From Candidatus Makaraimicrobium thalassicum (lineage in GTDB: Bacteria; Omnitrophota; Gorgyraeia; Tantalellales; Tantalellaceae): 64,000 nt of DNA. Position 1 is the first letter of the stretch, and each line of letters opens with the position of its first letter. Shown piece by piece: positions 1 through 25,971 of this stretch. The notes under the pieces are model-generated. The model did no database searches. It saw nothing but the letters and a program-made list of their open reading frames with translations, and was not told the DNA's origin. Position numbers and translations under genes: made by a program. The stretch lies in contig QNCM01000002.1 of the NCBI GenBank assembly GCA_003644505.1, positions 4,414 to 68,413 of the forward strand, written 5' to 3'.

Positions 1-3000
1 AGCATCTCTATGCTCTGGCAGGGAGTGGTATGGGCGGAACCTGATGCTTTTTCTAAACATACTCTCCAGCCCCAGACGTTATTTACCCGGCCCGGCCTGC
101 AGGACACCTTTCTCATGCTCGCGAGCGGCTATCTCGGGGTTTATCTCAACGGCATAGAAAACGATCCCCGCAACCAGAATGTCGCGAGGATAAGATCTCT
201 GGTCAATTCCGCATTAGCGCAAATACGGGATTCGGAAGATATCCCCCCTGAATTCAAGAAAACGATCCCGCATAACGTAAAATTGCGTCAGCAAAAATCC
301 GCGGTCATAATGGATATGGGTCAGTATAAGATCCGGTATTTTAACCACCGGATCCCCGGGAGCGAGATCCCTTCGACGGAAGAGTCCGGCATTTCTTATG
401 AGGTGCTCCAAACCTATGTCGGTCGGTATCTTTCCAGACAGATCCTTATTCAGAAAGCGTTGTCATCGCCGCCCCACTCTGATGTTTCAGGAAAAGCTGT
501 TGTTGGAACCACGCCTGAACCGGAGGAGATACCGGAGGAGATAGTTGAAACGGTTCAAGAACCGGAAGGGGACTTATCAAAAAGCCCTGAAGATTCGGAA
601 GCATTAAGAGAGATATCAGATAAAAAATGGAAGCGTGCGTTGCGCTGGAACGGTATTTATCTGGCATGTTATTGCTTTATCCAATTAGGAATTATTTTAT
701 CGGGCTGGGCTGGCGCTGAGATAGTTTCTCAGCCAGTCCTTGGATCCAGCGAGGGATATATCAGTGGAGCCTTGGCGCTTACTTCCCTTGGTCTATGGAT
801 GTGGGCGCGTTCTTATCACCCCTGGAGGGAAACTGCCGGGGTGACTCCTCAAATTCTGGTTGTGAGCGGGCCCTACAGGTATTTAAGGCATCCTGTTTAT
901 TCGGCGATGCTCATGATTTCGGCGAGTTGCAGTGTGTTTGTGTATGGTCAGCTCGGCATTATAGTGTCAGCTCCGCTGTTTGTTCTTAACGGCGTTGTTT
1001 TTGTATTATTCAACTCTCTCGCGCGTTCCGAAGAAGAAGAACTGACTGTCCGGTTCGGGGAAGAATATCGCCGGATCCTCCGGCGCACTTATAGCTGGCT
1101 GCCAAGGCTGTTTCCTCAGGCGCATCCGGGATCTGGCCCGTCGGCAGGGACGGGGTATTCCGAAAAAGACTTTATTTCTGATGATGAGAAGAAAGAGAGA
1201 GGGGCAGGGGAACAGCGGACAGGCCGGATCGAAAAATTTGATCTTGTATCCGGCCTGAAAGAACTTTCCGGATCGGTCGCAAATCTGTTACAGGAGAAAG
1301 AGCTCGTTGTTATTGCCATGACCGGTAATCGCGGGGCAGGGAAGACGACCGTTTCAAAGTTACTGGGACAGGGTTTTGCCGGCGCGCGCAAGGAAGAGAT
1401 ACTTGTTATAGAGCAGGATGCTATACACAACTTGCGGAAGATCGCGGAAGAGAGGCAGGAGGTATTTAATGACGGGGTCAAACGGGATGGGGCGGGAAAG
1501 AAGATAATAATCGTCGAAGGATTCTACGCTTCCGAGAATTTCGGTCCGAAAAGCGTCCTCAAAACTCCGGATGTGCTCGTAATTTTAGAGGCTGATGAAA
1601 AAATACGCCAGAGGCGGGTCGCCGAAAGAATAGGCAGCAAAGCGTGGCTGGCTCAGCTCGCTACAGTGATAATGGACGGCGATAAAGAACCCGTTTACCC
1701 CGAGGCTGAGTATCAATTGAACATAACAAACAATATACCACTGCAGATCATAAAGGATGATATTGAGAATGTCCTGAGGCCCGGGTGGGCAAAAAAGGAC
1801 GTTTCCGTTTCAGAGCCTGAGGACAGGTGGTACTCTATTTTTCCCAAGATATATAAAAAATTATCAGGATTGATACGAAGGAACCTGATGCCCCTGTATG
1901 CAGAGGCGGATTATGCCATAGAGTATCTGGAAAAATATGGCTGGTCTGTTCCCGCGTTCTCAAATCCGGCGTCTGTTTCTTCTGCTGAACATGGTCTTGT
2001 TTTATTATCCCTGGCCCTGTGCGCGGGCGCCATAAAGACGGTCGGCAGAAGGCCGCAGCTGGAGAAGGCGAGAAGGCTGTTAAATGAACAAAAATATGAC
2101 GAGGTCAAACAGATATGCGGCCGGCTCAGGGAACCCCTGAAAAGAAAGAAAAATAAAGAGGATTACGTGGAATGCCTTAATCTTCTGGGGTTCGCTTATA
2201 ACGGGAATAAAGAGTTTTCCAAAGCAGGCGAGATTTTTAAAGAAGCGATCGCAGAGGGGGTAAAGGCCCGCGTCGGACAGGCGACAATAAGTATTTTCTT
2301 CAGGCAAAACATATACAGTAAGGCGATGAGTCTCTTCTACGAGAAAGGGGACGTTCAGGGGGCTGTTTCAGTCCTGGAGCAGGGCAAAAAGGATATGCCT
2401 TACGATACTACATTGTCTTCCCTGCTGGGTGAGATGTATTACGAGGCGGGGGATATGGCTTCCGCGGAAGAGATACTCCTCAAAGTACTGGATGAGTTGC
2501 CCGAAGATGAGAAGGATCAGAGAGGGGTCGCTTATTACAGACTGGGGATGGTCTCCTTAGAAAACGGGGACGTTCGGCAGGCAGAGGAAAGGTTTTATCT
2601 GGCGCTTGAGAGGCGGCCTGATTCCGCTGACGTCTATCACATGCTGGGCTGGTGCGAGTCCATGCGGGGTGAGTATGAGGCGGCGAGAACGGAGTTCCAA
2701 AGAGCAAGGGAATTAGGTGTTTCAGCCGGGAGAACAGCACAGGGGTTTATGGTAGCCTGCATACAGGAGGAGAAATTCGGGGAGGCGATCGATGAATTAA
2801 GGCGGGCGCTGGAGGCCGACGCGGAAGATCCGAACATATACCGGTTACTACTTAATAATTTACCCGGGAAGGAAAGGTTAAAACAGGCTTTTGGCGTGAT
2901 TTTTTCCCTTTCAGACAATGAACTGTTCAAAACAGCGATGAAAGGCCTGAAGGCGTATTATCAGAACCCGAAAACGGGGGAAGACATAACGGCCGTGTTA

Positions 3001-6000
3001 GCGGAGGTCCTGCGGGAGCTGCGGGGCTCTGCGGATGATGTTGTGGCTTCAAGGGCCTCTTCAGCCTGCGCGGAATTAGACGCGGGTTTATCCGACAGGC
3101 TTGCCATCCTGGCTATTGAGGCGGCGAATAAAGGGGATCTGGCCGCGGCTGAGAGGTACTTTGATAAAGCCGAAGGATCGGATCCGCGGAATGTCAATGT
3201 TCTTCATCCCCTCGGCGATTTTTTGATCAGCATAGAAAGATACGAAGAAGGTATCAAAAGGCTGGAACAGGCGAAGGGCCTTATAGAAGATGTCAATACG
3301 CCTTACGGCCTGGATCTGGTCCGTGACCTTAGAGACGCGTATGTCAGATACGAAAAGAACCTTCTGAAAAATGGGAAGATCATCCAGGCAGGCTCCTTGT
3401 TCAGGAAAGCCCTGATCACAGCTATAGAGATCGACAAAAGGAAGGACAAAGAAGGGGAAGATTCCAAAGAGTTGTATGAATTCCTGATAGATTTCGTGGC
3501 TACTCTGGAGGGGTCCCCTGAAGGAATAGAACAGGGGGTCGCTGTCTTGAAAGAATTACTGCCTATAGCGGCGGAAAAGAGTTTAAGCGCGGATCTGATC
3601 AATTTCGGACTGGGTAAACTCTATTATGAAAAAAGCAAAATGGAGGAAGTTTTCGGAAATCCGGAAACTCTCGTGCATCTGGACCAAGCGGTACAGGCTA
3701 CTGGTAAAAAGGATGAATACGCGGCACTGGCAGCCTTTCATATCCGACGCCAGCGGGGATATATCTACTTAAGCAGTTATGATTATCGCAGGGCTAAACA
3801 GGATTTCGACATATGCCTCCAGCAGCAGAAGGTTTCAGAGGAGATGATGGCGCCTGTCAGGATAGTCGCCAGTGTGATCGATGAAGCATCGGGGAATCAT
3901 TCAGGCGTTATTAAAAGACTGAACGACGTTGATGAAGACCTGATTCCGGCTTCTCACCAGGTTATTCTGAACAAACTCTTAGGTGATGCTTATTACGGGA
4001 TAGGTGATCTGGACCGGGCACTGAAGTTTTACCAGGAAGCGTTATCAAAAGAGAGGACCCTTTTCAACCCGGTTATCCGGGTACGTCTGGGCAGGGTGTA
4101 TCGGGATATAGGAGAACCGGAAAAAGCCGTGGAATCGTGCGAACTCGCGCTTAAAGAAGCCATGGAGGACATGGACATGGTCCCGGCTAAAGGCCGCGAA
4201 GACATAGAAAGCTGGATACAGAACCTGGGATCGAACAGGGACAGGATCCCTGTATTTAACATACAGCCGCTGAGTGAAGTTCTTATCTCCATGGGGGCCC
4301 TGGATGTTTTTTCGGAAAAAGAGATATCCGGCAAAAGCCTCTTTGATATGGGCGTTGAATTAGGCAGGCAAGAGGTGGAAGCGAGAAAAGCTTTCAGCAA
4401 TAAAGTGCCGGATGCGGATATAGATCTCTTTGCCGGCATTAGAAAGGAAGTGCTGCTGGCGCTGGCCGGTGAAGCGCTTCAGAGTGAAAATCACGCTTTC
4501 TGGGGAGAGATCATCGAGGCGCTCGGGAAAACCGGAGGCGAAGACATAGTGGATTATCTGCTGGATAAACTGGAGCTGCCTTTCCTGAAAGGGGAGAAAG
4601 GGTTGGAGCCCTTGCAGAACTTCCTTCGCGCCCTTCTCTGGACAAGGGAGAGCCGCGCCTGGGAGCAGGTTGACCGTGTAATGGCGGGGCAGGATAAAAG
4701 ATCAAGAAAAAAGATCGCCAAGGCTATCACCAGACTGAAGAAAGAGCTCGGCAGGGACGAGGAGAGATCAAGGAAAGCGGAGGAAGCGGAGAAGGCACGG
4801 AAAGCAAGAGAAGCGGAAGAAGCCGAGAGACTGAGGAAGGAAAGAGAAGAGAAAAAAGCGGAGAAGGCACGGGAGGCGAAGGAAAAGAAAGCCAGGCAGA
4901 AGGCTTATCGCGCGGTTCCGCCGGCTGTTATGGAGATACTGGGGCCAGAACAGGTAGACGCGATCATCGATGAAGCGATACAACAGGGTGAATCGGAAGA
5001 GACAGATGTAACTCTCACGATAATGGCAGTCGACGCGTTGTCAGACAGGTATATCAAATATCACCGTTTAATAGGGGAACAGCGGGATGAATTGGCAGAG
5101 AGATTGAGACGGGAACGTATATCATTGCCGGAGTTTCTAAGGACGTTGGATGACGAGGCGCCCGCTACCGGATGGAAACAGACAGTTGAGGTTTCAGCCG
5201 GGGAGTTATATCTGGTTGAGTTCGGTACCTGGAAAAAATATGAGGGTCTTGGGTCTGAGGGTTTTGAGCCGGAAGTAATTTTAGAGGTAAGGAGCCCGGA
5301 GATAGACAGGGAATCTTTGAGCGCATATCAGGAACGTCTTAAAGAAGCCCTTGTTGAGAGCGGGATCTACCGGAGATGGAGCGAAGCTGAGCTCGAAACG
5401 CTGGGCGGCAATCTTTACCCCGGGACAGAGGAAGATCAGGGAGCTTACGACGACAGGTGGGATGGGATCATGGACTTTTTTGCGGGGCTGTTCACGGAGA
5501 TATCTACCGAAATTGAAGTCAAAGAAAAGGATACGCCGACTGCGCCGGAAAAAACCACCATGAAAGCGCCCGGTTCTTTATCAATGGATGAGGATCGGCG
5601 CATCGATAAACAATATATTACGGGGCTCGTCTCAAAGGCCACGGAGAGGACATGGGAAGTCAATATTCCGGCGGCGGCGGATTATATTAACCGGCACGCC
5701 CCGCCGCTCAAGACCGCGCATGTTGAACCCGGCGGCATACGGATATTTACCGTTGACAGCCTCGGGGATAAGCTGGGCATCCCGCGGTTCAAGGGCGCGG
5801 AAAAAGCGCCTGATCTTGTTTACGCGTACGGAGTATTTGATGAAGAGGAAGATGACCTGAAGATATACGCAACCGAAGCCTATTTTGATGCGCATTTAAA
5901 AGATGATATTTTAGCTCTGGCCGAGATCATAGACCATGAATATACGGAAAATGTTCTGGGCTATTCCCACCGCGCGGCAGCGTCACGTTCCCGCAAATTC

Positions 6001-9000
6001 GTTCCAGAAGGCGGTTTCTTGAGTCCTTTCCATTATTTTTATATCAACCGGATAATAGAAGAAGGCGATTATTTATTGGCGGGATCGCTGGTTCCGGAGA
6101 GGGATGCCTCCGATGATATCGTAGAGGCCAATAAAGGGGATAAAGATGCGGCCGGGAAAATACAGTCATACGAAAAGCTGTTTTTCAGTTACCTGCGTCT
6201 CCTGGAATGGCTTAGTAAAGCGGATAAAGAAAAAAATCATGACGTACTGGCCGAATACGCGCTAAGGGCTTATAAAATACTGGAAAGATATCCGGAGATA
6301 ATATTGACCGAAGGACAAAAAGAGATATATCAAAGGATATCTCCCGAAAGGTTTTACATCCATGAATATGAAAGCGCGAAAAAGGTATCCATGCCGTTAT
6401 CTGAATTCCCGTTCGACGAATTTGAACATTACGGTGAAAACACGGTATTTTTGGGGAGCAAATTCGGTTCAAGAGGCGGGCTGTATTGTAAAGGCAAAAA
6501 GAAGCCTCTTATACGCATAACTGAGCATCCCGGCAGAAAGATAGCTTTTAACCTCAAGAACGGGGATATTTACCGCATATGGATCCTGGATGACGGGGAT
6601 AACGTGATAGATTTCCGGCAGATGGGGCAGATATACGAGACTGACGGCAGGTTCCGGAAAAGGTTTTACTATAAAATCACGCGATCACAGTTCAACGAAC
6701 TGGGAGATTGTATCATAAAGGAACACCGGCTGGATGCGGCCGGCACCTTGCATATAGGCGGCAGGGTCGTGAGATTCGGCGCGTATTACGCTAATTGCAA
6801 AGTTGAAATAAAAGTCAGGTCAGGGCAGATAGACAGCGTATGGATATTCGATGAACACGGCCTGCCGGTTAAGAAAGCTGATTTTGTTCTTATATTTGAT
6901 TGTAACGGAATTTCAAAAGCTGGCACAAATCAGATCCCTCGATTCGCTTCGCTCACTCGGGATGACAGAAAGTTGTCATCCCGAGCGAGGGAGCCGGAGG
7001 CGACCGAGTCGAGAGATCTAAGTTCTAAAAGAGGTTGGTTAAAAGGTTCTTTTTACCGTAATCTTACCCGGAATGAGCTTGAGAAACTTGATAATGTGAC
7101 TTTAAAACGGCTCAGGTTGAATTCAAGAGGCGCACGCTATCTCGGCGGCAGCAAAGACCCTGTACCGTATTTTCCCCGGCATCCAAACGCGGAAGTAGAG
7201 ATAGATATGATACAGGGACATATAGATAAAGTCAGGATACTCGGCTCTGATGGAGAGGTTGTAGAAGAACATATCTTCAAGCTGGTGTATGACGAGGAAG
7301 GCAGGATAACATGTTCGTTCCATAAGGATATGGCCGAAGATGATTTTGAAAAGATAACAGGAAGGATCACAAGGTTAAAGACCGGTGGCGGCGGCCATCT
7401 TAGAGCCGGCACTGCGGCCCTGGGCACGTTTACCGGGCACAAAAATTGCCCGGCTGAAGCGGAAATCGAACGCGGTATTCCAAAGGTGATCAGGTTTTAT
7501 GAGGACATGGAAACCCGGAAACCGGCCGGCAAACCCGTGCGGTACAGCCTTATTTACGATGCCGGAGGCAGGCTCATAGATTCGTTCAGAAAACAATATT
7601 CAAAGGCGGCGGGAGAAAGATTAAAGAAAGCCACGGTAAAGGAATTTTATCTCAATAAGGGCGCGTCTCTGAAATTCGGCGAACGGTACTGGGCGACTTT
7701 TGACAGAAAGGAATACGGCGGGCGTAAGATCGAGTTTGACGTTACTGACGGTATAGTGACAGAGGTCCGGATATTTGACAGGCAGGGGGAGAACATAGAG
7801 AAGACGTGTCCTTTTTCGCTTGTATACGAGATCGGCGGAAAAGGAAAGGAAAAACTCGTTGATAGTTTCTGGACAGCTTACGGCCCGGAGAAATTCGAAA
7901 AACTGACAAACCATGTGATTAGAACTTTGAAACTCAGCAAATATGGGGCGCTTGATATCGGAGGCAGGGTAGGAAGGAATAAGAACATGCCCCGCGCGAA
8001 GTTTCCCGGTAACCCCGGCGCTGAAGTCGTTGTATATGTGAAAGAGGGCGAAGTTATAAGAGTGACCGATATTGCCGGAGATGAGTTGGAAGGAACGTAT
8101 TTTGGCAGGGATAAAACAGGCGCAAGTGGAGAGAGTAATCTTGACCGGCGTTACGGGCAAGGCCCCCTGGCAGCCGGGACTGTTGACCGGTCTGCTTACC
8201 GTATGCCTAAAAAACCGTTTGAGATACTCAAGGAAAAAATAAAAGAGGCTGTCTCTAAAGGAGAGATCCCCGATGGAGACCATGAACGGTTCTTAAGCCA
8301 CGGACTGGCATGGACGGACAAAGGGGCAAGGGTGCATTTTATAAGAAATTCTAAGATTTATACACTTGCCATGGAAGCCATGAACACGGGTTCAGGTGCG
8401 GGTGATCAAATAAAAGATTACCATGACCTGATGGGATACATCAATCTTTATTTAAGGACGAAATATATTATTAAAAGGTTTAGAAGGGAATATAAATATG
8501 ACATCGTAAAACAGGTAATATTACGGCTTAAGGATTATCCCCGGTATATCCGTCTTCTTGAGTTTTACCGGGATCAATACGGAAAATTCGCGGGTGAGGA
8601 CAGAAAAGGAGACGAAGAGGCTCTGCTTGAGGACATGATCAGCCGTTTTGTCGCAAGCAGGGCCCTGGGCGGAGGAGCGGTTGAACTTTTGGACGAAAAG
8701 GGCATGAACAGAAGCCTGGATGATTTTTGGCCGCTTGCTTCGTGTGTTATTAAGGATGGGCTGTGGATGTTTGAGAATGAGCTTGATAAGATCAAAGATA
8801 TAATTTTTAAGGAGAACGCACAACTTAAAGATGAATATAAAACGGCAAAAGAAAAGCAGGAACGGCTTAAAAAGCGGATATTCCAGCTCTTGAACGAAGC
8901 CTCTCCTACAGTGAAACAACTGATAGAGATCATACGTATTTTAGACCCGCAAGCCGAAGCCCGTTCAAGGGCACAAGAGGACGCATCCGCGTTTGAAGGA

Positions 9001-12000
9001 TACTTAAAAGAAGATATGGTAATTATAGCCGGATATTTAAGATCATCCGGCTACGACGTTCTTGACCAGGCTGTCCTGAAAAAGGCGTTTGTTTCTCTTA
9101 AAGGTAAGCTTATGGTGATAGACTCTTTTGATATGTTCGTAAGGGCCGTCGGAGGTCTTGACCGCAGAAATATGATCGATGCCGTTTTTGAGGGGAGCAT
9201 AAATTTTGAAAGCGCCCTTGTTTCCCATATGCGTGGTTTGAACGGAACAAGAAATATGGGAAGCAGGCTGAGGAGTTTGACTGCAGCCAGCGGCCTGTCT
9301 TCAGATCAGGCAGCGGAAGAGATCGGTTGTTCGCCTTCTACGATGCGTGCATGGAGAACTGATGAAAGTGACCCTTTACCCGGATATCCGCCTAAAATAG
9401 CGGACGTGTTCAGCAGGCGATTGGGCGAGCCGGTATCGACTTCACTGCTGGTATACGGCCAACCCCTGAACGATGTGTTGCAAAAGACGGCTACTTTTGG
9501 CGAACGGCTGTTCATACTGGCACGGCTTTCCGGCCTGGATGCGGATGAAACAGGCAAAATGATCGGACGTGACGGTCAGACTATAGGATCGTGGACGCGC
9601 GAGTTTAATACACCGCAGCAAGAACTGGATTATCTTAAATTAGCCGGGATATTCAGTAAACGTTTAAAAGAGAAGATCGAGGTTACGACCCTGATGTCCG
9701 GAATAAGCCTGGATGAATTTCTGTGCAGCGAGAAAGTAAAGGCTCCGAATGGCGGCGGGGAGATCCAGGTTACTCCGGGGCTCAGGATCAGGGTTTTAAG
9801 GTTGTCATGCGGCCTTACGACGACGGAGCTTGCCGAGAAGGCCGGTGTCCCGCACGGGACGAGAAGCCTGGTGAATAAATGGGAAAGAGAAGGAGTATTA
9901 CCCCGGGTAGATCGTTTATTAAAACTGAGCAGGATCTTTGGAAAAGTAAAAAAAGATATAGAGGTTACGCATATACTTTATGGGAAGTCTCTTGTCAAGT
10001 TTTTATCAAAGTCGGACAGTTTCGGGGAAAGGGTGGAATCCATAAGACTGGCTTTAGGATTGGAACTAAAGCAGATGGCGGAAGCGATGGGGATTCACCT
10101 TGCTACTTTACGTGTGTGGAGAAAAAGGGTGGATCCTCCCGCAAACGACAAGCCGATAACATTATTAGATGTGTATCACAGGGAAACCGGTAAATATCTG
10201 GATGGATGCCTGCTTTTTTACGGAAAGACCTTGAATACGCTTTTGGACGAACTTGACAGGTCAAAAGCTCCTGAGATCATCAAATATTTCAGGATCTCCG
10301 CGGGATTGAGCAGAAAAGAAGTAAGTGATAAATTAGGCGTTGATGAGAACACCGTATGGCAGTGGGAATCGGGGGTAACACTGCCTCATAGAAGCAACAT
10401 GGTTGCTTTAACCGGAATGTTCAAAGAACTTTTTGCCTCCAGGGATAATGGTATAAGCGTAAGGATAGTAGCTGAGCATCTTGTGCCGTTATTGTTAATT
10501 CCGCCTGGACATACTGATAGGGGCCCGGCGCTTTTTGTCGATCCGGCAACCGGGGACGTAAGAGCGTTGAAAGGGGAGCCCGATGCCCCCGGCATGATAT
10601 CAGAGCATAAAGCGATCAACCTGGTATGTGACGAACTGGTGTTCAAACGGCAGAGGCCGCCGCTGGCCGCGGGAGATCCCCTGTATGATTTTGTCAGTGA
10701 AGTCGCTCCTGAAACGGACATATATGTTATAGATGACGCCGCGCTCAAACAGGGATTAGAGAAACTTGCCAGAAAAAATAATCAGCCCGGCCTTGCCGGG
10801 CTCGCGGGAGGCCTTATAACCCATGCCGGCACCTGGCGTGACCCTGAGACGGGCCGGATCAGGGCCTTAAATATGTTTATCCCGGCATCCGTTTATGAGC
10901 TTCTGCTGGGATTCCTGCAAAGAAGGCACCTGATGGAACAGGTCGTCCCGTTACTTGGGTTCTGGAGAGCTCACGAAATAGGGCATCTTATAGACCGCGA
11001 ATACGATCTTGACGATGAGCTGCCCGAAGGTGCAGAAGACATGGCAAGGCTCATACTTCTATTGAGTAAAGCACAATGGGCTATGGAAAAGGGCAGGCTG
11101 AAGCAGGCACAGAAATATGCGGATACAGCCCTGGAGCTTCACCCCGGGTTCGATTTCACGCTTGATCTACGGTTGCGTATAGAGGAGAGCGGCTACGGGA
11201 TGTCAGGCGTTAGAGTGAGCATGATGGCCGTTCTAGACGCAAATATGCGGGATAAAGCGATGATAATAAGGCGCCATCCACCGGAAGATAATGTCCTGGA
11301 TACACTCGCGGGTAAGGCAGGAAAGGATTCAAAACGTCTTTCCCAGGTTATACAGGTCATATTGCAGCAAGCATTCGAAACGATCAAGAGGGGTGGTCCG
11401 GCTCTGGCGGAGTTTTTAGATGATCTGAAGATAAGAGGAGCCGGGATAGAGCAGGGTTTGTCGGATCCGGAAGAAGAGATCGCATTAGAGAGGGGTATAG
11501 CAGAGGGGGGAATGCAGGATATCGGGGATTATGTTGTCCTGCCTGTTGTGTGCAGGTATATAACACGCGCGCTGGAACAGAGTCCGAAACTGACATGGCA
11601 GATGAGCGTTGTCGAGAAATTGATGGATCTGGCAGGGAAAGGAAGAATAGGAAGTAAAACAGAAGTCTATCATGAGGAATCCGGGTACCGCACCAGTCTC
11701 CTATCCTATATATATTATCTCGGAGCGCGGGCGTACATGGCCGCGAACCTTAACAAGGCAGTGATGTACTTCGAAAAATCGACGCAGCAGGACAGGCCTA
11801 TGCCCGTATCATTTACAGGGCTTGCTCTTTCCCTCGTTGAGAGCGACAGGACAGAGGGGTCTTTTGAACGGGCGTATCAGGTGTTGGGCCAGGCCAGGGA
11901 CAATTTCGGAGATCTGGCTGTTATCGCTGAGGCAGAGGGTATCCTGCACGCGGAGCAGGAAAAGACGGCCCTGGCGTTGAGAGAAGCGCGTGAACTCTTT

Positions 12001-15000
12001 AAGAGCGGTAATTATGTCGCCTGCAGACAGAGGATAGAAGAAGAGACAAAGAGGCTGCATAGCACATCTCTTTTCCCTTCTTTCAAGAAATTCGAGGGAA
12101 AAGGAGGATTAGGCAGACTGGTGAGCGGCCGCACGGGCAGTGCCGCGGTCAGCCCGCTTCTGACAGAGTTAAACGCAAGGAATGAAACTCTCCTCAGGCT
12201 GAAATACAGAGCAAGACAGAATTTAAGTATGGGAGATTATGACCAGGCGGAAAGGCGTTTCAGGGAGGTACTGGACCAGAACCCTTCAGACAGTGAGATT
12301 GAACAGCTGTTGCTGGATATCTCGCGCAAGAGAGAAGAGGCACAGGAAAAAAGGACAGCGGAGGAACTGGGGCTTTTTGCTGAGTGCCTGAAAAAGGCCG
12401 AAGGACAACTGTCCTCCGGGGACCGGGAGGTATCTGACGGCCGGCTGGAAAGCGCCGAAGAGTATTATAAAAAGGCCCTGCTTGAGCTTGAACGCGCCCC
12501 GCAGGTTGAGATGTCCGCTGTGCGGGTTGATGAAAAGATGAGGGAAGCGATCCGGAGAATAGACAGTATCGGGAAGGAAATAGCCGAAAAGATAAGAGAT
12601 ATACAAGCCGAAAGGCAAAGCCGGGCAGGGGAAACCGGAGTGATCTTTTCCGGTGATGTTGCCGGCGCATTCGACAAAGCGCTTTACCCCCCGGAGGGAA
12701 AGATTACAGTGCCGCCCATACCGGGGAGCGCTCAAAGGATCATACTGGAGGCTGTCAGGAAGGTATCAGAAGGTGACGAAAGGGATGTCAGGGACATACC
12801 CAGCCGCGGGGATGTATGGGTATGCCTCGCCGGCATCTACAGGATAGTTTTTACCCTTACCGACAGCGGGGATATATTTGTTGTCTGGGTCGGCAGCAAG
12901 GACACGGCAAAATACAAAAAAGTGCTCGCGCCTCTTCCCGAAGGCTTTGACCCCGAAAAAATGCTGGACCGGGCCGTGAGAATAGAGGACATTGGATCAG
13001 GCGCGCCAGCCCGGCCTGTTCGCGCTCAAGCAAAGAACAAACCCGGCGGCCCGGCGCTTTTTGTCGATCCGGTGACCCGGCAGATGAGGGCATTGAAGGA
13101 TGAACCCGATGCCGCCGGTATGATATCAGAGCACGAAGCGGTTAACATGGTATGTGACGAACTGGTGTTCAAACAGAAGAGACAGCCGCTGTCCGCGGGA
13201 GATCCCTTGTATGATTTTTTCAGTGAGCTCGTTCCTGATACGGACATATACGTGATTGATGATGCCGCGCTCAAACAGGCATTAGAGAGACTTGCGAAAA
13301 AGAACAGTCAACCCGGCCTCGCCAGTCTCGCAGAAGGCCTTATAACCCATGTCGGCACCTGGCGCGACCCTGCCACGGGCCGACAGAGGGCCCAGAACAT
13401 GTTTATACCGGATTCTGTCTACGGATTTTTGGTGAAGCTTCTGAAAAAAAGGGACTGGTTCCCGGATGCCGGTATACTGCTTGAATTCTGGAGGCTTCAC
13501 GAGAGAATACATTTTTTGTTACGGGAAATTGATATTGACGGGATGATAGCTTCCGGGGAATCGCAGGAAATGGCGGAACTTGTTCTTCTGCTGAGCAGGG
13601 CGGAACGCGCGCTGGAGAAAGGCATGCTGGAAGAGGCTTCGGAATACGCGAAAAAGGCCATTGAGGTCAACACGAACCTTGCGGTTACGCTTGAATTAAA
13701 TGGGCGCATAAGTGAGGTCAGGAAAGACTGGGACGAGGCATTTCAGGATTATTTGATAGCCCTGGCAGCGGCAAATTTACAGAGCAAAGAGATAACCATA
13801 GGGCATCCGCTGGAGAGCAGGGTGCTGAATATGCTTAAAAAAATTACCACAGCCAGCCCCAAGAAAGTCTTCAGGGGCGTCATGGATCAAGTAGAGTTCC
13901 TGAAAAGTCTGGGGCAGACTTCTCCGGTATCAGATGAAGACAGGGAAAGACATATAATCACTTATTTCGGCATTCTGCCTGTCACGTGCAGATACGCGAC
14001 CCCGCCATTACAGATAAAGCCGGCTCAATGGGATCTGACGATGACACGGTTCCAGGTAGCCGTTGCTGACAGGTTATTGGAACTGCTCAAAGAAGGAAAG
14101 ATCGTTGATCCGATGGACGGCGGGGAATCCGGCAGGCTTTTATCTTACATTTATTATCTTGCCGGCGAAGCGAGCCGGTCGGCAGGGGATATTGATCAGG
14201 CTGTCGCGTATTTCAGGGAATCGGTCCGTTATGATGAGCCCTTTTCAAGGTCGCCGGCGGCACTGGCTGTTTCTCTGGCGCACAGGGACGGGACCCCGGG
14301 ATCTGTTGAAGAGGCATATCAGGTCCTTTCCTCGGCCGAGGAACAATTCGGCCCCCTGGATGTGTTCAGTTCGGCGAGAGAATACGTCCGGGAAACGGAA
14401 GAATGGATCCTGGTTCATGAAGAGGCCCTTGAACTGTTCAGGCGGTGCGATTATGAGGCTTGCCAACGCTGTATAACAGAGGCGAGGAGAAAGAAAGGCG
14501 AAACAGCCCTCCCTGCTCCTTTGAGCGTTTCTTTGGAAAACCTGCGGAAAAGCGCCCGTTTAGCGGACAGGTTAAAGAACAGGGGGATAGAAAGTTTCAA
14601 GAATCAGGATTATATGGCGGCTGAGAAGTGTTTTGAAGCGGTATTAGAGGAGAACCCTGCTGATGAGGAAGTGATGGGATTACGCGCCCGGATCCGGGAA
14701 ATCAAAGAGGAAAGACAAAAGAAAACAACGGCTGCGGATACCGCGGATAAACGTGATCAGGCAACGGAAAAATGCTACCTTGCGGTGCAAAAATTCCGTC
14801 TTATTGCCGAAAGGCAGGAAAATGCCGGACGGTTAAGCAGGGCCAGTAAGAATTACAGAAAGGCACTGGCCGAGCTTGAAGAAGTGCCGCCTTTTTATAC
14901 CGCAATCGGACAGATTCGGAGGCAAATAGAAAAGAAACTGGCCGCCATAAAGGGCCTGCCCGATAAAACGGTAAGGAAAGGCGAAAAATCCGGACCGCAA

Positions 15001-20406: not shown

Positions 20407-23400
20407 ATGAGGATTCATCATGTGTATTCCAGACGCACGAAGAAAATGAACCGTATTATCACAGTGGTGATAATTACCTGTTTTGCCGCATGTGATATTG
20501 CGCGGGCGTACCCGGCCGGCATGCGGGCCGGTAGCGGCAGTCTCGTGCAGCAAACCTTATTCACCTCTCCGGATAAAGCCGGATCTCTTGCCAGGGCGGC
20601 AGCCAAATATCTTGAAGCGAGTATGGCGAAAGCCTTTGCCGGAATACCGCTCGCGGATGTCCAGGCCACGCTTGAATATATCAGGGAGACCGCGTTTTCC
20701 AGCTTGCGGATCGACGGCAGAAGATTTAATGTAACAGGCGGCGCCGAAGAAGGACAGGTCTTTGTAACAATATCAGAAAGCTGTGTTTTACGGTATTTCA
20801 ATCCTAAAATGCCCGCGCTCCCTCTTCCCGCAGATAACCTTACAGTATCCTGGGAATATCCCATCAATGAGTATCTTGGGTTCCAGCTGTTAAAAACCAA
20901 ACCGGCCGGTTCAACCCAGCCTGTTGAAAGTTCTGCCCTGGAAGCCGGGCAGGAGGATATGTTCCGCCGTCTTGGCATGAACAGCGAGGTTTTTCTGCAT
21001 GAGATAGTCAATATACAGTATGTTTTCAGCACAGTTTTGGAAATAGGGGAATTACGGTTGGAAAGAGACGGGGAAGGAACTACCCCTAAGTTCGCCGGGC
21101 TACTTGAATTGAATCAGCAGATGAAAGTGACCATTAACGGCTTAAAGGAACTAAGCAGATTGTTTGTATCTGGCAGATTGACGAAGGAATATCTGAACCA
21201 GACCCAGGGCTGTAGAGAATGGAGAGGGAAGGATCTTACGGAATATTTCTTTGAAGAAGTGGAAAAATTACACGATATGCTTGAATGTGTGAAAAACTAT
21301 CATCTGAACAGATATGTGCCGGTCTTTTCCCAGGAGCATAAGGCGTCAATAAAAATAGCGTCTCAGCTGATGCCGTTCGCATGTTCAAAAATAGCCGCCT
21401 TTTTTCGCTCAAAAGGCGGGTTAGACGCAATAGGACGTCAGCAGGAAATGGACGTGAATTCGGTTATCGAAATGGCGGCCGTCAGTTTTTTCCGCAAAGA
21501 TAAAAATATCATCTTATCTTTAAACGATGTTCCTCCGGTAATGGGGGATAAATTGTTGTTTATGGAAGTGTTGTACAACCTTATTAAAAATGGATTTGAA
21601 GCGGCAGATAAAGAAGGATTTGTCCGTGTGGGCACTTTTCTGGACAGCCAGTCAAATGAAGTTGTTGTTACCGTTGAAGACAACGGGAGAGGGATCGCGC
21701 CGCAGGATAAGGACCGTATTTATGAGATGTTTTTTACCACTAAGGGTGAATTGGGTACGGGGGTAGGGGTTGCCTTTTCAAAAGAAATAGTCGAAAACGC
21801 GGGCGGAACGATCACTTTTGATTCGGAATACGGAAAAGGCACGACGTTCACGATACGATTGCCGGCTTCCGCAGGGATTGATACAACCGGAAATCCCGGG
21901 GGCATTTTGGGTTATTTTAAGGCTTTGGACAAACAGGGAGATAATGCCGTGATCGCGGGCGTCAACCTCGCTGATCTTGAGAACGAATCGGATCTGACCG
22001 CTTATTTGAATGATTACTGTGTGGTTCAGGAAAAGGAGGTATTGAAGGATCTGTTGCAGAACAGGCTCAAAGGCGGAGAAAGGGCATTGTTCGATTCGGT
22101 TTTTAATCCCAGAGCAAGACTTGCGGAAAGGGTCAAAGGAGAGGGAAGACCGCCGCTTAAGGTAGTCCATGTCCGCGGCGGCAGAGGCGCCGCTAAGGTG
22201 ACTGAGGAACTGTCGGCACTGGCGCGGGAAGGTTTCGTGGATCTGACCATTATCCCCGGTGCAGTGGATGACGGAAGAAGCTGGGCCGATATGGCCTATT
22301 ACCTCAATACCACGGGGGTCCCTGACATGGGTAAGGGATATTCCGATATGGGCTCTGATACCGATGCGGTGGGTTTCGCGGTATCCAGGCTGGTGGAAGG
22401 GGATACCCCCTGTTCCAAACAAGAAGCATTCGAGTTGCTTGGAGAAGCGATCAGGGGTTTTAAAAACAAGTATCACAAAGCCGCGAACGCGGATGTTCGA
22501 AGATTGGTCAGGCAGTTTGAGGTTCTGGATAGAGAGAAAAGGGAGAGAGTACTGCCCTGTATCATCGAATTTTACGAAAGAATAAAGCTGGAACAGAGGA
22601 AGAACAACCTTTATATGGATATCAGAAGAATCCCCATGAGAAGCGTTATTATCGTCGGCGCCAGGGAGATATTCGGATCATGGCAGGGAGCGATAGATTT
22701 CTTCGGTGAGTTTGTGGATTCCGCGGGAAGGGTGTTGCTTCCTACCGAAGACAGATTATACGCGATGGCCTTACTGGAGGACGGCACGTTCCTGCCCACG
22801 GAGAACGCGCTGAACGAAGCCGGCAAGGACAGCGGCTATCTATATTTTACCGTGGGGCCCGGATCTTTTGCAAGTAAGGAGGTGTTTGAGGAGATATTTT
22901 ATGCGTCCATGGGAAGGCCGCCTCAGGAGCGCGAGAAAAGGATAATCGAGCTCCTCCGTATGTCTGAATATGACAGGTTAAAAGGTGAATCCATAAATTT
23001 ACTGAGAAATATGTCAAAGCCGGAGATAAAAAATTTCATAGGCTTCATAGAAAAAACTTTTTCCTACCTGTCCTCCGGCATAATGATCCAGCCTTCCGCG
23101 GCAGAGGCCGTAAGCGAGGCTGACATGATCATCTATGGGCCTACGGATATAGAGTCCAATATCGCTTCTGCCGTCATCTATGACGATATAAGAGAGGCCA
23201 TTGAGAGGAACAGGTCCGCTGTAAAGATACTTATAGGCAATTCCAGGGATGAGCATCATATCGAACCGCCCGGGACAACGATAAGCTCGCAGATGGAAAG
23301 GTTATACCGCTATTTGTCGGATCAGCAGCGGTACAGGGTAGATGAATGTGATTGGGGGAGGCTTACTGATTTTGTAACGCATGTCATAGGCAGAAAATAT

Positions 23401-24393
23401 GACGATCCGGAGCTCAGGGATTATATCCCTTTTGACGCGGACTTATTGAGGAAAACAGGAGTTGCCCCCGTAGGTCTGGATCTTGAGATGCTGAACCTGG
23501 GGCAGGACCGCACAGGGGCATACGGAGCAGAATACCGTCAGACGCGGGACGGCCGATACAATAGTTCTCTTATGGTTGACGTTATGCTTTCGCTTTCCAT
23601 GATGAATGAGCTCGGATATCCGTTAGAGCTTTCCGAGGAGAAAAAAACTGTGGATCCGTTGTCTAACCGTTCCGCGGGAAGAACGGTCATGGCAGGAGTG
23701 GAAAAGACAGTCCCACGCCTGGTAAACGCGCTTGTCACAGCCAGCCGCAGGGTCTCACCCGCCCGTGCTAGAGCCATGGTCCAGGCCGGAGACGCGGAAA
23801 CTGCCTCAGAAAAAGAGGAAAGAAGGATCGGTATTTTTATCGATGAAAGGCTCGGCAGCGGAAAGACGGAGGAGATAATGGAAGTTCTGGAAAAGCTGAC
23901 CCACAGGGAGGGGCTCTTAGGCCGGTTGTTAAGGAACGCTGCGATTAAGTACGGTGATATAAATGATATCAGGGAAGGCCCCGCATATCTGGAAACAAGA
24001 AAGAACGTGCGCAAAGAAGACATGGTAATTATAACGCGTAATGAGGAGCTTGAATGTTTAAGGCCTTATGAAGGAAGCTCTGTCATAACCAAGGTGGATG
24101 ATGCTGACCTGGGATCAGATTCTTATTATCCTATCCTGGAGATAATTCTTTTTTCGCTCGCCCGCGCAAGTATCCTTGAATATAGGAAAGACGACCTCAT
24201 CGGATTTTATGGATCAATCCCCAATGTTGAGAGACTCGACGCGGACGCAATAGTTGATCTATGCTGGGATGAAAACATGAACAGATGTAAAAGCACGATC
24301 ATCCTCAAACTGGGGATCCCGGATGCCGGACAGATAACCGGCGAGTCGGAATTATACAAAAGCATCGCAGAATACCTCGCCCGCAACGCCTAA
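20407..24393 (+). CDS. Large secreted or membrane-anchored protein combining a GHKL/histidine-kinase-like ATPase domain with a CofD/YvcK-like (UPF0052) domain. The true start may be the internal Met at 20446.
   Basis: A 1,328-aa ORF begins 19 nt after the giant CDS stop. A signal-peptide-like N-terminus MNRIITVVIITCFAAC (possible lipobox AAC) starts at 20446. The HATPase_c motifs (N, G1, G2 boxes) and the CofD/YvcK-like block are detailed in the sub-features. Confidence 0.75.
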   Translation: MRIHHVYSRRTKKMNRIITVVIITCFAACDIARAYPAGMRAGSGSLVQQTLFTSPDKAGSLARAAAKYLEASMAKAFAGIPLADVQATLEYIRETAFSSLRIDGRRFNVTGGAEEGQVFVTISESCVLRYFNPKMPALPLPADNLTVSWEYPINEYLGFQLLKTKPAGSTQPVESSALEAGQEDMFRRLGMNSEVFLHEIVNIQYVFSTVLEIGELRLERDGEGTTPKFAGLLELNQQMKVTINGLKELSRLFVSGRLTKEYLNQTQGCREWRGKDLTEYFFEEVEKLHDMLECVKNYHLNRYVPVFSQEHKASIKIASQLMPFACSKIAAFFRSKGGLDAIGRQQEMDVNSVIEMAAVSFFRKDKNIILSLNDVPPVMGDKLLFMEVLYNLIKNGFEAADKEGFVRVGTFLDSQSNEVVVTVEDNGRGIAPQDKDRIYEMFFTTKGELGTGVGVAFSKEIVENAGGTITFDSEYGKGTTFTIRLPASAGIDTTGNPGGILGYFKALDKQGDNAVIAGVNLADLENESDLTAYLNDYCVVQEKEVLKDLLQNRLKGGERALFDSVFNPRARLAERVKGEGRPPLKVVHVRGGRGAAKVTEELSALAREGFVDLTIIPGAVDDGRSWADMAYYLNTTGVPDMGKGYSDMGSDTDAVGFAVSRLVEGDTPCSKQEAFELLGEAIRGFKNKYHKAANADVRRLVRQFEVLDREKRERVLPCIIEFYERIKLEQRKNNLYMDIRRIPMRSVIIVGAREIFGSWQGAIDFFGEFVDSAGRVLLPTEDRLYAMALLEDGTFLPTENALNEAGKDSGYLYFTVGPGSFASKEVFEEIFYASMGRPPQEREKRIIELLRMSEYDRLKGESINLLRNMSKPEIKNFIGFIEKTFSYLSSGIMIQPSAAEAVSEADMIIYGPTDIESNIASAVIYDDIREAIERNRSAVKILIGNSRDEHHIEPPGTTISSQMERLYRYLSDQQRYRVDECDWGRLTDFVTHVIGRKYDDPELRDYIPFDADLLRKTGVAPVGLDLEMLNLGQDRTGAYGAEYRQTRDGRYNSSLMVDVMLSLSMMNELGYPLELSEEKKTVDPLSNRSAGRTVMAGVEKTVPRLVNALVTASRRVSPARARAMVQAGDAETASEKEERRIGIFIDERLGSGKTEEIMEVLEKLTHREGLLGRLLRNAAIKYGDINDIREGPAYLETRKNVRKEDMVIITRNEELECLRPYEGSSVITKVDDADLGSDSYYPILEIILFSLARASILEYRKDDLIGFYGSIPNVERLDADAIVDLCWDENMNRCKSTIILKLGIPDAGQITGESELYKSIAEYLARNA
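21490..21880 (+). other. HATPase_c (GHKL ATPase) domain of the downstream protein
   Basis: N box is LYNLIKNGFEA. G1 is VEDNGRGI and G2 is GTGVGVAFSKEIVENAGGTITFDSEYGKGTTFTIRLP. No canonical HisKA H-box (HE[LI]RTPL) is visible upstream. Confidence 0.7.
22150..23330 (+). other. CofD/YvcK (UPF0052, 2-phospho-L-lactate transferase / gluconeogenesis-factor)-like domain, divergent
   Basis: The N-terminal motif KVVHVRGGRGAAK...DLTIIPGAVDDGRS parallels YvcK's KIVVIGGGTGLS...ITAIVTVADDGGSSG. The distal motif ADMIIYGPTDIESNIASAVIYDDIREAIERNRSAVKILIGNSRDEHHIEPPGTT parallels ADLIVLGPGSLYTSIIPNLLV...AI..S.A.KVYVCNLMTQPGET. Confidence 0.4.
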
Positions 24394-25686: not shown

Positions 25687-25721
25687 GATATCGGCGACGT
25701 ATAGCCCCCGATCCATAGTTC

Positions 25722-25929: not shown

Positions 25930-25971
25930 AAGTCAATTAATATTGATTCTTAAAAAGACAGGGGGTAGATC

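Follow-up and report, generated by a model that had tools for sequence, protein, structure and literature searches.

A giant mosaic gene and its neighbour in Omnitrophota, read as members of one unannotated end-domain family

The window, by which we mean the whole analysed stretch of 64,000 nucleotides, begins within a giant gene that is followed on the same strand by a second one, the partner. Our overall reading, which we consider probably correct, is that the two are neighbouring, distant paralogues of one unannotated family with cargo shuffled between conserved end-domains. That both belong to a single family defined by these end-domains is very likely, and both are almost certainly real genes. 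The features of the locus are collected in Table 1.

The giant open frame and its junction with the partner

Frame 1 of the plus strand is stop-free from base 1 to a TAA at 20386-20388; the chance of such a stop-free frame is ln P ~ -326. The earlier note had described a single frame of 20,388 nt continuing past the 5' edge and had proposed the upstream contig as the place to find its true start. The frame is indeed uninterrupted, and in the source contig (ENA ERZ27227322 k141_1246129, 114,909 bp) the called gene yields the full product, of which only 19 codons lie beyond the window. By family alignment these 19 residues are the n- and h-regions of the predicted signal peptide. An artefact, in which ordinary separate genes were joined by mis-assembly or sequencing error, or in which a pseudogene is decaying, is highly improbable. 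It would draw on the large internal repeats of the giant and on the contig name, from which we judged the source to be a short-read metagenome and also took the assembly k-mer (k141). However, the internal duplicates share only 75-83% nucleotide identity, and repeat-driven mis-assembly is unlikely because the longest exact repeat (<50 nt) is shorter than that k-mer. The 6,795 codons without a stop also argue against it, as do relatives of 2,187-4,027 aa that are collinear with the giant over several module boundaries and have both ends in common, and a copy of the partner in a JGI data set (99% coverage, 100% identity).

The two genes are adjacent and co-oriented, with a tight junction: the partner ORF has the 1,328 aa and the strand given previously, and the spacer measures 18 nt and not 19. 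It contains a ribosome-binding site, and a consensus scan found no terminator-like site between the genes. The first strong hairpin downstream, detected by the same kind of scan, comes after cinA and ligT, and may mark where a giant-partner-cinA-ligT transcription unit ends.

Table 1. Features of the giant gene, the partner gene and their junction (window positions; aa, residue numbers of the respective protein).
Feature	Position	Strand	Remarks
Giant gene	1..20388	+	6,795 codons in window; full product 6,814 aa, start 57 nt upstream of base 1
Signal-peptide tail and family N-domain	1..510	+	…MLWQGVVWA/EPD; N-domain aa ~10-165; TLQPQTLFTRP, IRYFNHRIPG, GRYLSRQIL motifs
ICMT/PEMT-like membrane domain	640..1125	+	TM-like segments aa 219-341; RHPVY at aa 296
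P-loop kinase-like domain	1297..1635	+	AAA_18/PRK, weak Zeta_toxin; Walker A GNRGAGKT at aa 442
TPR-rich region	2068..4200	+	strong TPR matches
K/E/R-rich stretch	4699..4908	+	aa 1567-1636; presumed coiled coil, read from sequence
Module A, copy 1	5503..6402	+	invariant DHE[YF]xE…G..H…LSPFH; unannotated cargo
Module R	6436..8100	+	about five diverged ~110-aa repeats; after module A here and in relatives
Module B, copy 1	8116..10500	+	unannotated ~370-aa part and 5 XRE-type HTH units (aa 3085-3494)
Super-module C, copy 1	10522..13035	+	HExxH domain aa 3508-3735 (GPALFVDP…THAGT…W..HEIGH), TPR-like region, RelE/ParE-like unit aa 4235-4345
Super-module C, copy 2	13048..15435	+	HERIH at aa 4500; RelE/ParE-like unit aa 5059-5145
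Module A, copy 2	15415..16317	+	75% aa, 83% nt identity to copy 1
Module B, copy 2	16315..18789	+	5 further HTH units (aa 5818-6209); 75% nt identity to copy 1
Class-I SAM methyltransferase	19096..19416	+	VGVGTG motif at aa 6373
Family C-domain of giant	19681..20385	+	ends …ILTKA-stop
Shine-Dalgarno-like site	20399..20404	+	GAGGAG in the 18-nt spacer, 2 nt before partner ATG
Partner gene	20407..24393	+	ORF, 1,328 aa; second member of the same family
Partner signal peptide and family N-domain	20407..20931	+	basic n-region, h-region IITVVIITCFAAC, ARA/YP
Histidine-kinase-like core	20998..21867	+	H-box-like FLH198EIVN, long insert, HATPase_c aa 380-487 (N, G1, G2 boxes)
CofD/YvcK (UPF0052)-like block	22162..23328	+	large insertions; recurs as cargo in P0172
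Family C-domain of partner	23641..24390	+	ends …LARNA-stop
Terminator-like hairpin	25722..25759	+	17-bp stem; first strong one downstream, after cinA and ligT; consensus scan only

Shared end-domains and the family they define

Giant and partner share a predicted Sec-type signal peptide, an N-domain of ~140 aa and a C-domain of ~220 aa, and within the window the two domains are borne by these genes only. Outside it, both recur in every detectable relative. Identity between the two proteins is just 21% in the N-domain and 25% in the C-domain. The partner, which carries the giant's own N- and C-domains, is its distant paralogue, and we reject the view of it as a separate GHKL/CofD accessory enzyme. 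Both N-termini have the features of an envelope-targeting signal, and that of the partner resembles a signal peptide, as previously proposed. In the family at large the predicted leaders combine a basic n-region, a short h-region (12-15 aa) and a small-x-small site, with the conserved c-region WQxVVWA/xPD.

An exhaustive HMMER profile search of 1.84 billion representatives found the C-domain in 307 protein clusters at E<=1e-3 (71 at E<=1e-30). In all of the best 150 of these 307 matches it lies at the very C-terminal end; these proteins range from about 250 to 6,400 aa (largest 6,377). Alanine is the last residue in 145 of 151 members. The giant, at 6,814 aa, is the largest member observed. 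A small HMM placed the N-domain at the N-terminus of 78 of the 107 complete members longer than 600 aa. All 12 members that bear an organism name are from Omnitrophota, most matches being anonymous metagenome sequences, and so far the family is thus found only in this phylum; several MAGs contain more than one paralogue. Neither end-domain matched Pfam or NCBIfam, and the PDB offered no specific structural relative for either. The N-domain is of alpha+beta type; the C-domain folds as a generic alpha/beta sandwich. Across 61 proteins the N- and C-domain distances are correlated (Spearman 0.62, Mantel p ~0.001). This correlation may reflect common descent only. We propose the name "bookended" proteins for the family.

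Cargo between the ends, and the locus in related contigs

Pfam matches bear out the earlier description of the giant as a catalytic and regulatory mosaic and not an adhesin-repeat protein. The TPR region, the ten XRE-HTH-like units (five and five) and the class-I SAM methyltransferase (Methyltransf_11, 3e-10) were all recovered, the last as a module that also precedes the C-domain in several relatives. The proposed uridine-kinase-like kinase returned as a P-loop kinase-like domain with scores just over the cut-offs (AAA_18 30.4 bits, PRK 24.4 bits), and the K/E-rich stretch behind the presumed coiled coil is present. Two other assignments stood in part. The ICMT-type domain is marginal (Pfam 23.8 bits against a cut-off of 24; NCBIfam isopcys_mtase E 1e-7, far under its cut-off; a weak PDB match to the ICMT-family structure 4a2n), though the RHPxY motif is present and its TM-like segments are the only ones outside the leaders of the two proteins. 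The two RelE/ParE-like folds are recognised weakly but consistently: of 9 homologous copies of the unit, 4 match ParE_toxin, and RelE-family toxins are the best PDB profile matches, at E 0.1-0.8. Module A matched nothing in Pfam or the PDB. Amino-acid identities between the giant's duplicates are 75% for A1/A2, 53-69% for B1/B2 and 30-77% for C1/C2, and segmental duplication within the giant, of cassettes A-B and C, very probably accounts for its size.

The cargo of other members is likewise mosaic and comprises HD, PAS, methyltransferase, HATPase_c, Pkinase and CofD domains as well as enolase, PGK, iPGM, PTA, GH130 and others. Standard cassettes of the family are the methyltransferase, histidine-kinase core, CofD/YvcK-like block, P-loop kinase, XRE-HTH and TPR; specific to the family are module A with beta-repeats, and the HExxH domain with TPR and a RelE/ParE-like unit. 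The partner's CofD block shares 45% identity with cargo of the otherwise unrelated member P0172, and modules A/R, C/TPR/RelE and the methyltransferase differ in order and copy number between members. Modules thus move between members. A part of this repertoire (XRE-HTH, RelE/ParE, GHKL ATPase, methyltransferase) overlaps with defence systems, and PADLOC gave weak matches to RmrA, CapH and Mad2. An anti-phage defence or toxin-antitoxin island is nevertheless very unlikely: the matches are restricted to generic HTH or methyltransferase cores, PADLOC was blank for the partner and three of four giant segments, the domains are fused within proteins that bear predicted signal peptides, and the surrounding genes are conserved and of housekeeping type, mobile-element genes being absent from the window.

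In the partner, the GHKL ATPase and YvcK/CofD-like fold proposed earlier were both confirmed by Pfam (HATPase_c 2.6e-23; CofD 2.5e-12, above the gathering score). The core resembles sensor histidine kinases in its N, G1 and G2 boxes and in an F-x-H-E-I-x-N motif ~180 aa upstream, which is kept in relatives. It differs from them in lacking a Pfam HisKA match, in the unusually wide spacing between H-box and N-box, in having no response regulator nearby, and in its position after a signal peptide with no further TM-like segment. The CofD block finds the UPF0052/YvcK-like proteins 2q7x, 2o2z and 2hzb as best PDB matches (E ~0.004-0.006). Unlike these, it is a single cassette inside a larger protein, and large insertions spread its match to profile positions 1-241 of 290 over 389 residues. 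No F420-pathway genes were found among the window ORFs scanned.

It had been suggested that the giant and a specific GHKL-ATPase/CofD accessory form a dedicated two-gene module acting as an envelope complex. The tight same-strand junction is consistent with this, and so is the gene order in related contigs. In four contigs the gene immediately upstream of cinA encodes a HATPase_c-bearing member, and in contig L008, also from Omnitrophota, a large, giant-like, collinear member (P0243) and a HATPase_c member (P0246) are again followed by cinA-ligT-recA. The pair thus recurs in one other contig. The giant's closest relatives, P0121 and P0123, are instead followed by polyprenyl synthase and LytB genes with no GHKL protein. 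In L007 one member of 4,986 aa fills the slot, and GGDEF and SMC genes lie upstream of it. The proposed conservation of the GHKL-CofD combination did not hold: in precomputed Pfam listings the positional counterparts P0246, P0182 and P0159 have HATPase_c and no CofD, which is found elsewhere as cargo. With the supposed accessory also bearing the giant's own end-domains, a dedicated module is unlikely. The 1,328-aa protein is instead the positionally conserved, histidine-kinase-like member of the locus, immediately upstream of cinA.

Known systems and a possible role for the end-domains

The statement that no such system had been described was too strong. Long mosaic multi-enzyme proteins with signal-peptide and TM topology are already known from Omnitrophota, as described in reports on the 'Archaeovorin'-type giants (West-Roberts et al. 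2023, bioRxiv 10.1101/2023.11.21.568195) and on a 'multi-enzyme' class with a methyltransferase + HATPase_c + GNAT + HAD + HD module (Nielsen & Lui 2026, bioRxiv 10.64898/2026.06.07.730766). The likeness extends to the phylum (here taken from the relatives), numerous catalytic and regulatory Pfam domains of unrelated kinds on each polypeptide, TPR/HEAT scaffolding, a signal peptide that may or may not be joined by TM topology, internal repeats whose nucleotide sequences have diverged, and extreme sequence uniqueness. Our two proteins are smaller (6.8 and 1.3 kaa against catalogued classes of at least 10 and at least 30 kaa), and type II/type IV secretion and pilZ genes are absent from the 44 kb downstream. 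The available text of the two reports does not mention the conserved N-domain or the C-domain with its terminal Ala.

MARTX toxins also have conserved terminal regions around mosaic enzymatic cargo. A comparable reading makes the family secreted effector polyproteins, MARTX- or polymorphic-toxin-like, that deliver enzymes, toxins and DNA-binding modules into host or prey, with the ends serving translocation. Predicted Sec-type leaders on all members, exchangeable cargo between conserved ends and toxin-like cargo types would suit it, as would the fact that ATP- and SAM-dependent cargo would miss its cofactors outside a cytoplasm. Published accounts moreover portray Omnitrophota as predators or as dependent on hosts, and implicate giant proteins in this way of life. 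However, Pfam found no RTX/glycine-rich or pore-forming repeats and no autoprocessing protease (CPD, C39, S8), no secretion genes, of type I or otherwise, turned up in the 44 kb downstream, and housekeeping-type enzymes (enolase, PGK, iPGM, PTA) are among the relatives' cargo. The conserved ends are globular, with a generic sandwich fold in the C-domain, and an N-terminal Sec-type leader takes the place of the C-terminal secretion signal of MARTX. Polymorphic toxins vary at the C-terminal end, which in this family is the most conserved part. We consider effector polyproteins, in which the weakly matching RelE/ParE-like units, the zeta-like kinase and the putative HExxH protease would be the toxins, to be unlikely.

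The cargo is cytoplasmic-looking and cofactor-dependent (intact Walker A and SAM motifs, a histidine-kinase core with an H-box-like His, HTH arrays), as are the relatives' glycolytic enzymes in appearance. Export therefore fits poorly, unless the leader has no role in it or the cargo works inside a different cell. In a further reading the hydrophobic N-terminus would only anchor a membrane-tethered scaffold with its bulk in the producer's cytoplasm. The cytoplasmic type of the cargo and the housekeeping neighbours would agree with this, and the catalytic C-terminal part of ICMT-type domains faces the cytoplasm. Leader features nonetheless predict an N-in orientation and export of the downstream part, and the lack of both a second TM-like segment in the partner and a nearby response regulator also counts against retention. 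We regard such a scaffold, which would serve as a hub for signalling or regulation (histidine kinase, HTH, methyltransferase, kinase) and in the giant be anchored by the ICMT-like helices as well, as improbable. With the ICMT-like segment, the remainder of the giant could lie on either face of the membrane.

We return to the reading of two paralogues with shuffled cargo. Members consist of a predicted Sec-type signal peptide, the N-domain, cargo that varies from 0.3 to 6.4 kaa, and a C-domain ending almost always in Ala. The signal peptide would send the chain to the Sec translocon, and the end-domains, which diverge together while the cargo varies, may serve all members alike as handling modules in export, anchoring or head-to-tail assembly. 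Docking-domain and dockerin-cohesin systems (PKS/NRPS, cellulosomes), in which standard terminal modules mediate serial or scaffold assembly, offer a possible analogy by inference, with no sequence or fold similarity to the end-domains found. That the end-domains handle or assemble exported proteins is a tentative suggestion from sequence features. The cargo would supply the activity, either at the envelope or within the cell of a host or prey. Common to members of widely differing length, the end-domains unite them in one family.

Two adjacent genes with common end-domains

The giant, the gene that runs past the 5' edge of the window, was read in frame 1 of the + strand without a stop from the first base to a TAA at 20386-20388. 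At a stop frequency of approximately 3/64, the chance of these 6,795 sense codons remaining open is approximately e^-326. The giant's gene call, on the reverse strand of ENA ERZ27227322 contig k141_1246129 (114,909 bp), yields a product of 6,814 aa, and the window therefore lacks only 19 of its codons. Exact and wobble-masked scans of metagenome contigs returned no match to the 5' end, so that the true start and the upstream flank rest on the ENA call. The downstream partner follows after an 18-nt spacer containing GAGGAG, and a consensus scan revealed no terminator-like site at this junction. These are two real genes, tightly joined. The identical copy of the partner in JGI data (P0001) was called as 1,315 aa, starting at Met14 (20446). 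The longer form, from the ATG at 20407, seems more likely because GAGGAG lies just upstream and because it provides the basic n-region typical of signal peptides.

The genes cinA and ligT/thpR come after the partner, again with no terminator-like site between, and the features flanking them downstream are listed in the Table. Giant, partner, cinA, and ligT may form one transcription unit. The remaining genes of the window are all housekeeping genes on the + strand: cinA, ligT/thpR, recA, recX, alaS, the his and trp operons, ruvX, lepA, der, gpsA, tRNA-Pro, hom, and valS. All credible genes of the 64-kb window share this strand. GC skew was positive in every 2-kb bin (+0.11 to +0.22). Taken with the shared strand, this suggests a long run of co-oriented genes within a single replichore. 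The window is bacterial chromosome.

Table. Coordinates of features in the window and of related genes on other contig loci (L003-L010)
Feature	Location	Strand	Remark
Giant	1-20388	+	Open at 5' edge
Leader c-region, giant	10-45	+
Terminal Ala codon, giant	20383-20385	+
Partner, 1,328 aa	20407-24393	+	Upstream of cinA
Leader c-region, partner	20446-20520	+
Terminal Ala codon, partner	24388-24390	+
cinA and ligT/thpR	within 24578-25759	+
Strong hairpin, 17-bp stem and T-run	25722-25759	+	First one downstream; after cinA and ligT
Promoter-like TTGCAA-17-TATAAT	within 25900-25972		Just before recA
Phosphoglycerate mutase, free-standing	55702-56907
P0182, 4,986 aa	L007 10001-24961		Upstream of cinA; slot holds one gene only
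P0246, 2,607 aa	L008 10001-17824		Upstream of cinA; P0243 before it
P0159, 2,041 aa	L010 239-6364		Upstream of cinA
Very long ORF, 3,677 aa called	L003 23344-30629		Also L004, L005; runs off locus end
Secretin gene and 1,863-aa fusion	L009 1-1249 and 4323-9914		Beside P0127; secretin on opposite strand

When 5.8 billion proteins were searched with the giant's central 2,501 aa, only four relatives were found (P0121, P0122, P0123, and P0124), one of them annotated as Candidatus Omnitrophota. The first search with the partner was dominated by HATPase_c matches. Apart from the identical JGI copy, only P0002 outscored ordinary histidine kinases, over the HATPase_c region alone, and it was the sole informative relative. 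The giant, the partner, and the relatives found all have the same start domain and the same end domain. The start is a signal peptide followed by an N-domain of approximately 140 aa (motifs TLQxxTLFT, IRYFNP, and GxYLxRQ), and the C-domain that closes each protein measures approximately 220 aa (motifs IPxLVxAM, VLLLD, NIIVVT, YxPLxExxLF, YxxIPN, LIPDA, and a terminal A). Profile HMMs matched the N-domain at 1.5e-92 in the giant and 7.3e-69 in the partner, and the C-domain at 7.6e-114 and 2.1e-82, respectively. Within the window both domains were confined to these two genes, which are 21% identical in the N-domain and 25% in the C-domain. As the only two genes in the window that carry both domains, they are, judged by homology, distant paralogues. 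Described in the earlier note as a GHKL-ATPase/CofD-like fusion coupled to the giant, the partner is not a separate accessory enzyme, since it has the giant's own end-domains.

The N-domain was aligned over 38 sequences; the window does not include the initial 19 aa of the leader in the giant. AlphaFold2 predicted two long helices on a five-stranded antiparallel sheet (pLDDT 85) for the N-domain, and an alpha/beta fold with four strands (pLDDT 74, pTM 0.77) for the C-domain. The best-conserved residues of the latter are D6615, T6680, Y6710-x-P, E6715, F6719, Y6736, IPN, LxPxA, and the terminal Ala. These residues fail to match the catalytic pattern of HAD or receiver domains, since the D+2 position varies.

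The partner's leader is signal-peptide-like, with a basic n-region, a 13-aa h-region, and ARA followed by YP. Throughout the family the leader c-region is unusually conserved (WQxVVWA, then xPD and TLQPxTLFT). As this conservation exceeds what an ordinary Sec signal peptide needs, it hints at a specialised step of processing or sorting. At the other end, the last residue is Ala in 145 of 151 members, including giant and partner, and the usual ending is polar/basic-K/N/R-A. That a free C-terminal residue is conserved suggests that some machinery recognises it, for example a protease, a docking partner, or a PDZ-like domain.

Family size and cargo

The proteins that share these ends are here called the bookended family. 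The C-domain profile, run exhaustively with HMMER against 1.84 billion representative proteins, gave 307 matches at E≤1e-3, 166 at E≤1e-10, and 71 at E≤1e-30. The C-domain was C-terminal in all 150 matches listed, ending at most approximately 45 residues from the last residue, and the host proteins of the matches listed ranged from approximately 250 to 6,377 aa, with evident fragments set aside. A small HMM also placed the N-domain at the N-terminus of 78 of the 107 complete members longer than 600 aa. Short members that start with Met and lack the N-domain were considered as stand-alone C-domain proteins; they look like truncated gene calls. All named members were Omnitrophota, including Candidatus Tantalella remota, with only 12 named. 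Individual MAGs contain several paralogues, at loci unrelated to one another. With the 38-sequence N-domain profile, a word-indexed search yielded one protein only, and a genome-contig scan with low-complexity patterns from a 3-sequence alignment confirmed one locus. The 6,814-aa giant was itself absent from the matches in the 5.8-billion-protein search, despite the presence of its contig in the gene index, and very long proteins may be under-represented in the protein set, so that the census probably undercounts the largest members.

The interior of these proteins is a mosaic. A Pfam survey of 68 members identified HD, PAS, SAM methyltransferase, HATPase_c, Ser/Thr kinase, CofD, and TPR/HEAT domains, together with enolase, PGK, iPGM, PTA, glucosamine-6-P isomerase-like, GH130, amylase, carbamoyltransferase, and cytidine deaminase domains; some members, such as P0126, had no Pfam match at all. 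The window holds a free-standing cofactor-independent phosphoglycerate mutase (PhosphMutase/Metalloenzyme), and iPGM, enolase, or PGK are embedded cargo in some relatives. Residues 218-815 of P0172 are 45% identical to the partner's CofD-like block, and P0246 is collinear with its N-domain and kinase block. Of the giant's cargo modules (A, R, B, and C, with numerals for copies), the A and R pair, a triplet of HExxH, TPR, and RelE-like units, and the methyltransferase vary in order and copy number between members, and, among the members compared, module B and its HTH array were unique to this giant. Divergence of the N-domain correlated with that of the C-domain over 61 proteins (Spearman 0.62, Mantel p ~0.001), which argues that the ends descend together while the interior turns over.

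Cargo of the giant and of its partner

Nearly all domains that the earlier note had assigned to the giant were recovered in Pfam, NCBIfam, and PDB sequence searches. The ICMT/PEMT-like segment contains, at aa 219-341, the only TM-like helices by hydropathy. Its match is marginal (Pfam ICMT, 23.8 bits against a cut-off of 24; NCBIfam isopcys_mtase, 31.8 against 160) and spans only the C-terminal half of the model, with RHPVY present. The giant further contains a P-loop kinase-like domain whose Walker A motif is intact, a long TPR region, a K/E-rich stretch, a class-I SAM methyltransferase, two blocks of five XRE-type HTH units each, and two weakly supported RelE/ParE-like units. For the first of these two (aa 4235-4345) the best Pfam match was Gp49, at an E-value of only 0.08-0.14. 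ParE_toxin matched four of nine homologous copies of the unit (best 5.8e-4), and four of its five PDB profile matches were RelE-family toxins or toxin-like proteins (E 0.12-0.83).

Self-comparison gave the cargo order A1-R-B1-C1-C2-A2-B2, followed by the methyltransferase. Amino acid identity is 75-80% between A1 and A2, 53-69% between B1 and B2, each with five HTH units, and 30-77% between C1 and C2. By this comparison the giant has been largely built by segmental duplication. Its repeat copies are 75-83% identical at the nucleotide level and the longest exact repeat is below 50 nt, so that assembly collapse or chimerism through the repeats is unlikely. Module A, with the invariant pattern DHE[YF]xE…G..H…LSPFH, matched neither Pfam nor, in profile searches, the PDB; likewise no Pfam or PDB sequence relative was found for the R repeats of approximately 110 aa or for the beginning of module B. 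The HExxH domain at the start of module C (GPALFVDP…THAGT…W..HExxH) had no Pfam relative and only chance-level PDB profile matches. An ImmA/IrrE-like identity, considered for this module near the HTH arrays, found no supporting profile.

In the histidine-kinase-like core of the partner, the HATPase_c domain was identified by Pfam at 2.6e-23, with N, G1, and G2 boxes NLIKNG, DNGRGI, and GTGVGV. Approximately 180 residues before HATPase_c lies the motif FLH198EIVN, for which the alignment of four relatives shows FNHEINN, YRHEIAG, and FGHG; Pfam detected no HisKA. The boxes are shared with sensor histidine kinases, but no response regulator was present among the window ORFs scanned. The CofD/YvcK-like block (PF01933) scored 47 bits against a cut-off of 30, over profile positions 1-241 of 290 and with large insertions, and its PDB matches were UPF0052 proteins (E ~0.004-0.006). 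The same ORFs included no cofC/E/G/H-type genes that would point to an F420 context.

Locus conservation, known systems, and possible function

Immediately upstream of cinA, each of four independent Omnitrophota contigs has a HATPase_c member, 1.3 to 5 kaa in length (Table), and this comparison makes the kinase-type member beside cinA the conserved element. The pairing of a large and a kinase-type member recurs once, in L008, where P0243 (4,027 aa) is collinear with the giant at 25-38% identity (N-domain, HExxH module, A-R, A, A, methyltransferase, C-domain). Elsewhere it did not hold: L007 has a single gene, and P0121 and P0123, the giant's closest relatives, are located at other sites, followed by polyprenyl synthase and LytB. 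The CofD block is not conserved. The locus, compared across these contigs, is thus conserved in part.

Two neighbourhoods of relatives held other long proteins. The very long ORF downstream of P0123, polyprenyl synthase, and LytB lacks the N-domain and may represent another type of long protein. The fusion beside P0127 joins radical-SAM, ARMT1-like, and adenosine-deaminase domains and has neither end-domain.

PADLOC returned nothing specific to an anti-phage system, only generic HTH or methyltransferase sub-matches. The closest analogues in architecture are MARTX toxins, in which conserved ends flank exchangeable cargo. Their defining elements were not detected: giant, partner, and neighbours contained no Pfam match to RTX-type repeats, an autoprocessing protease, or a type I or other secretion partner.

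The claim that this domain combination is unprecedented was too strong, because West-Roberts et al. 2023 (bioRxiv 10.1101/2023.11.21.568195) and Nielsen & Lui 2026 (bioRxiv 10.64898/2026.06.07.730766) already describe long mosaic multi-enzyme proteins of Omnitrophota, with signal peptide with or without TM helices. A module in which methyltransferase, HATPase_c, GNAT, HAD, and HD domains co-occur is also reported in the latter (bioRxiv 10.64898/2026.06.07.730766). The giant shares with these Archaeovorin-type proteins many distinct enzymatic Pfam families, none dominating, and helical-repeat scaffolding; their signal peptide and/or TM helices are matched by its leader features and hydropathy, and, indirectly, their Omnitrophota origin by the 12 of 12 named relatives. 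At 6,814 and 1,328 aa, however, giant and partner fall below the size classes catalogued in these two studies (>10,000 aa, giants ≥30,000 aa; bioRxiv 10.1101/2023.11.21.568195; 10.64898/2026.06.07.730766). Archaeovorin-type giants are reported to be flanked by a type II/type IV pilus-like secretion locus upstream and pilZ downstream; no such genes were present in the 44 kb downstream of our pair. The end-domain pair, the terminal-Ala rule, and the uniting of proteins from below 1 to 6.8 kaa are absent from the portions of the published descriptions of Omnitrophota giants that were consulted. What appears new is the family defined by its end-domains; the long mosaic multi-enzyme kind was already known in the phylum.

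Taken by its basic n-region, short h-region, small-x-small site, and conserved c-region (WQxVVWA followed by xPD), the leader would direct Sec export. The end-domains could be general handling modules that serve export, anchoring, or assembly, in which case the activity would come from the cargo. ATP- and SAM-dependent enzymes, even a histidine-kinase core, behind a Sec-type leader constitute a paradox that the family sharpens; published work on the larger Omnitrophota proteins notes the same tension. Because the cargo is cytoplasm-type and cofactor-dependent, two readings are favoured. Action as effectors inside another cell is a tentative proposal that we consider rather improbable. Retention on the cytoplasmic side as scaffolds, despite the leader, we consider unlikely. 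Speculatively, and with low confidence, the N-domain and the Ala-terminated C-domain might be recognition and assembly handles of an undescribed Omnitrophota cargo-handling pathway. Such a pathway would carry cytoplasm-type cargo of any sort (enzymes, kinases, toxins, and DNA-binding arrays) through the envelope, perhaps as far as host or prey cells, or link it head-to-tail in extracellular multi-enzyme chains.

The very long mosaic proteins of Omnitrophota have so far been treated as sequence-unique singletons. The locus suggests a defined family, at least 307 clusters in size, whose listed members span approximately 250 aa to 6.8 kaa and in which two compact, conserved, and structurally confident end-domains stay constant while cargo is swapped. 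The two HMMs and the terminal-Ala rule provide a sequence handle with which such proteins can be identified and classified even where metagenomes are fragmented, and the end-domains are small enough for expression, localisation, mutual-binding, or secretion-recognition tests. Cargo swaps and duplications offer a natural series for studying how giant proteins grow. If the end-domains are ordinary structural caps, the finding is a useful family annotation and nothing more. If they are handles of a cargo-handling pathway, the family would be a natural modular chassis, of which the much larger Omnitrophota giants would be an extreme elaboration.
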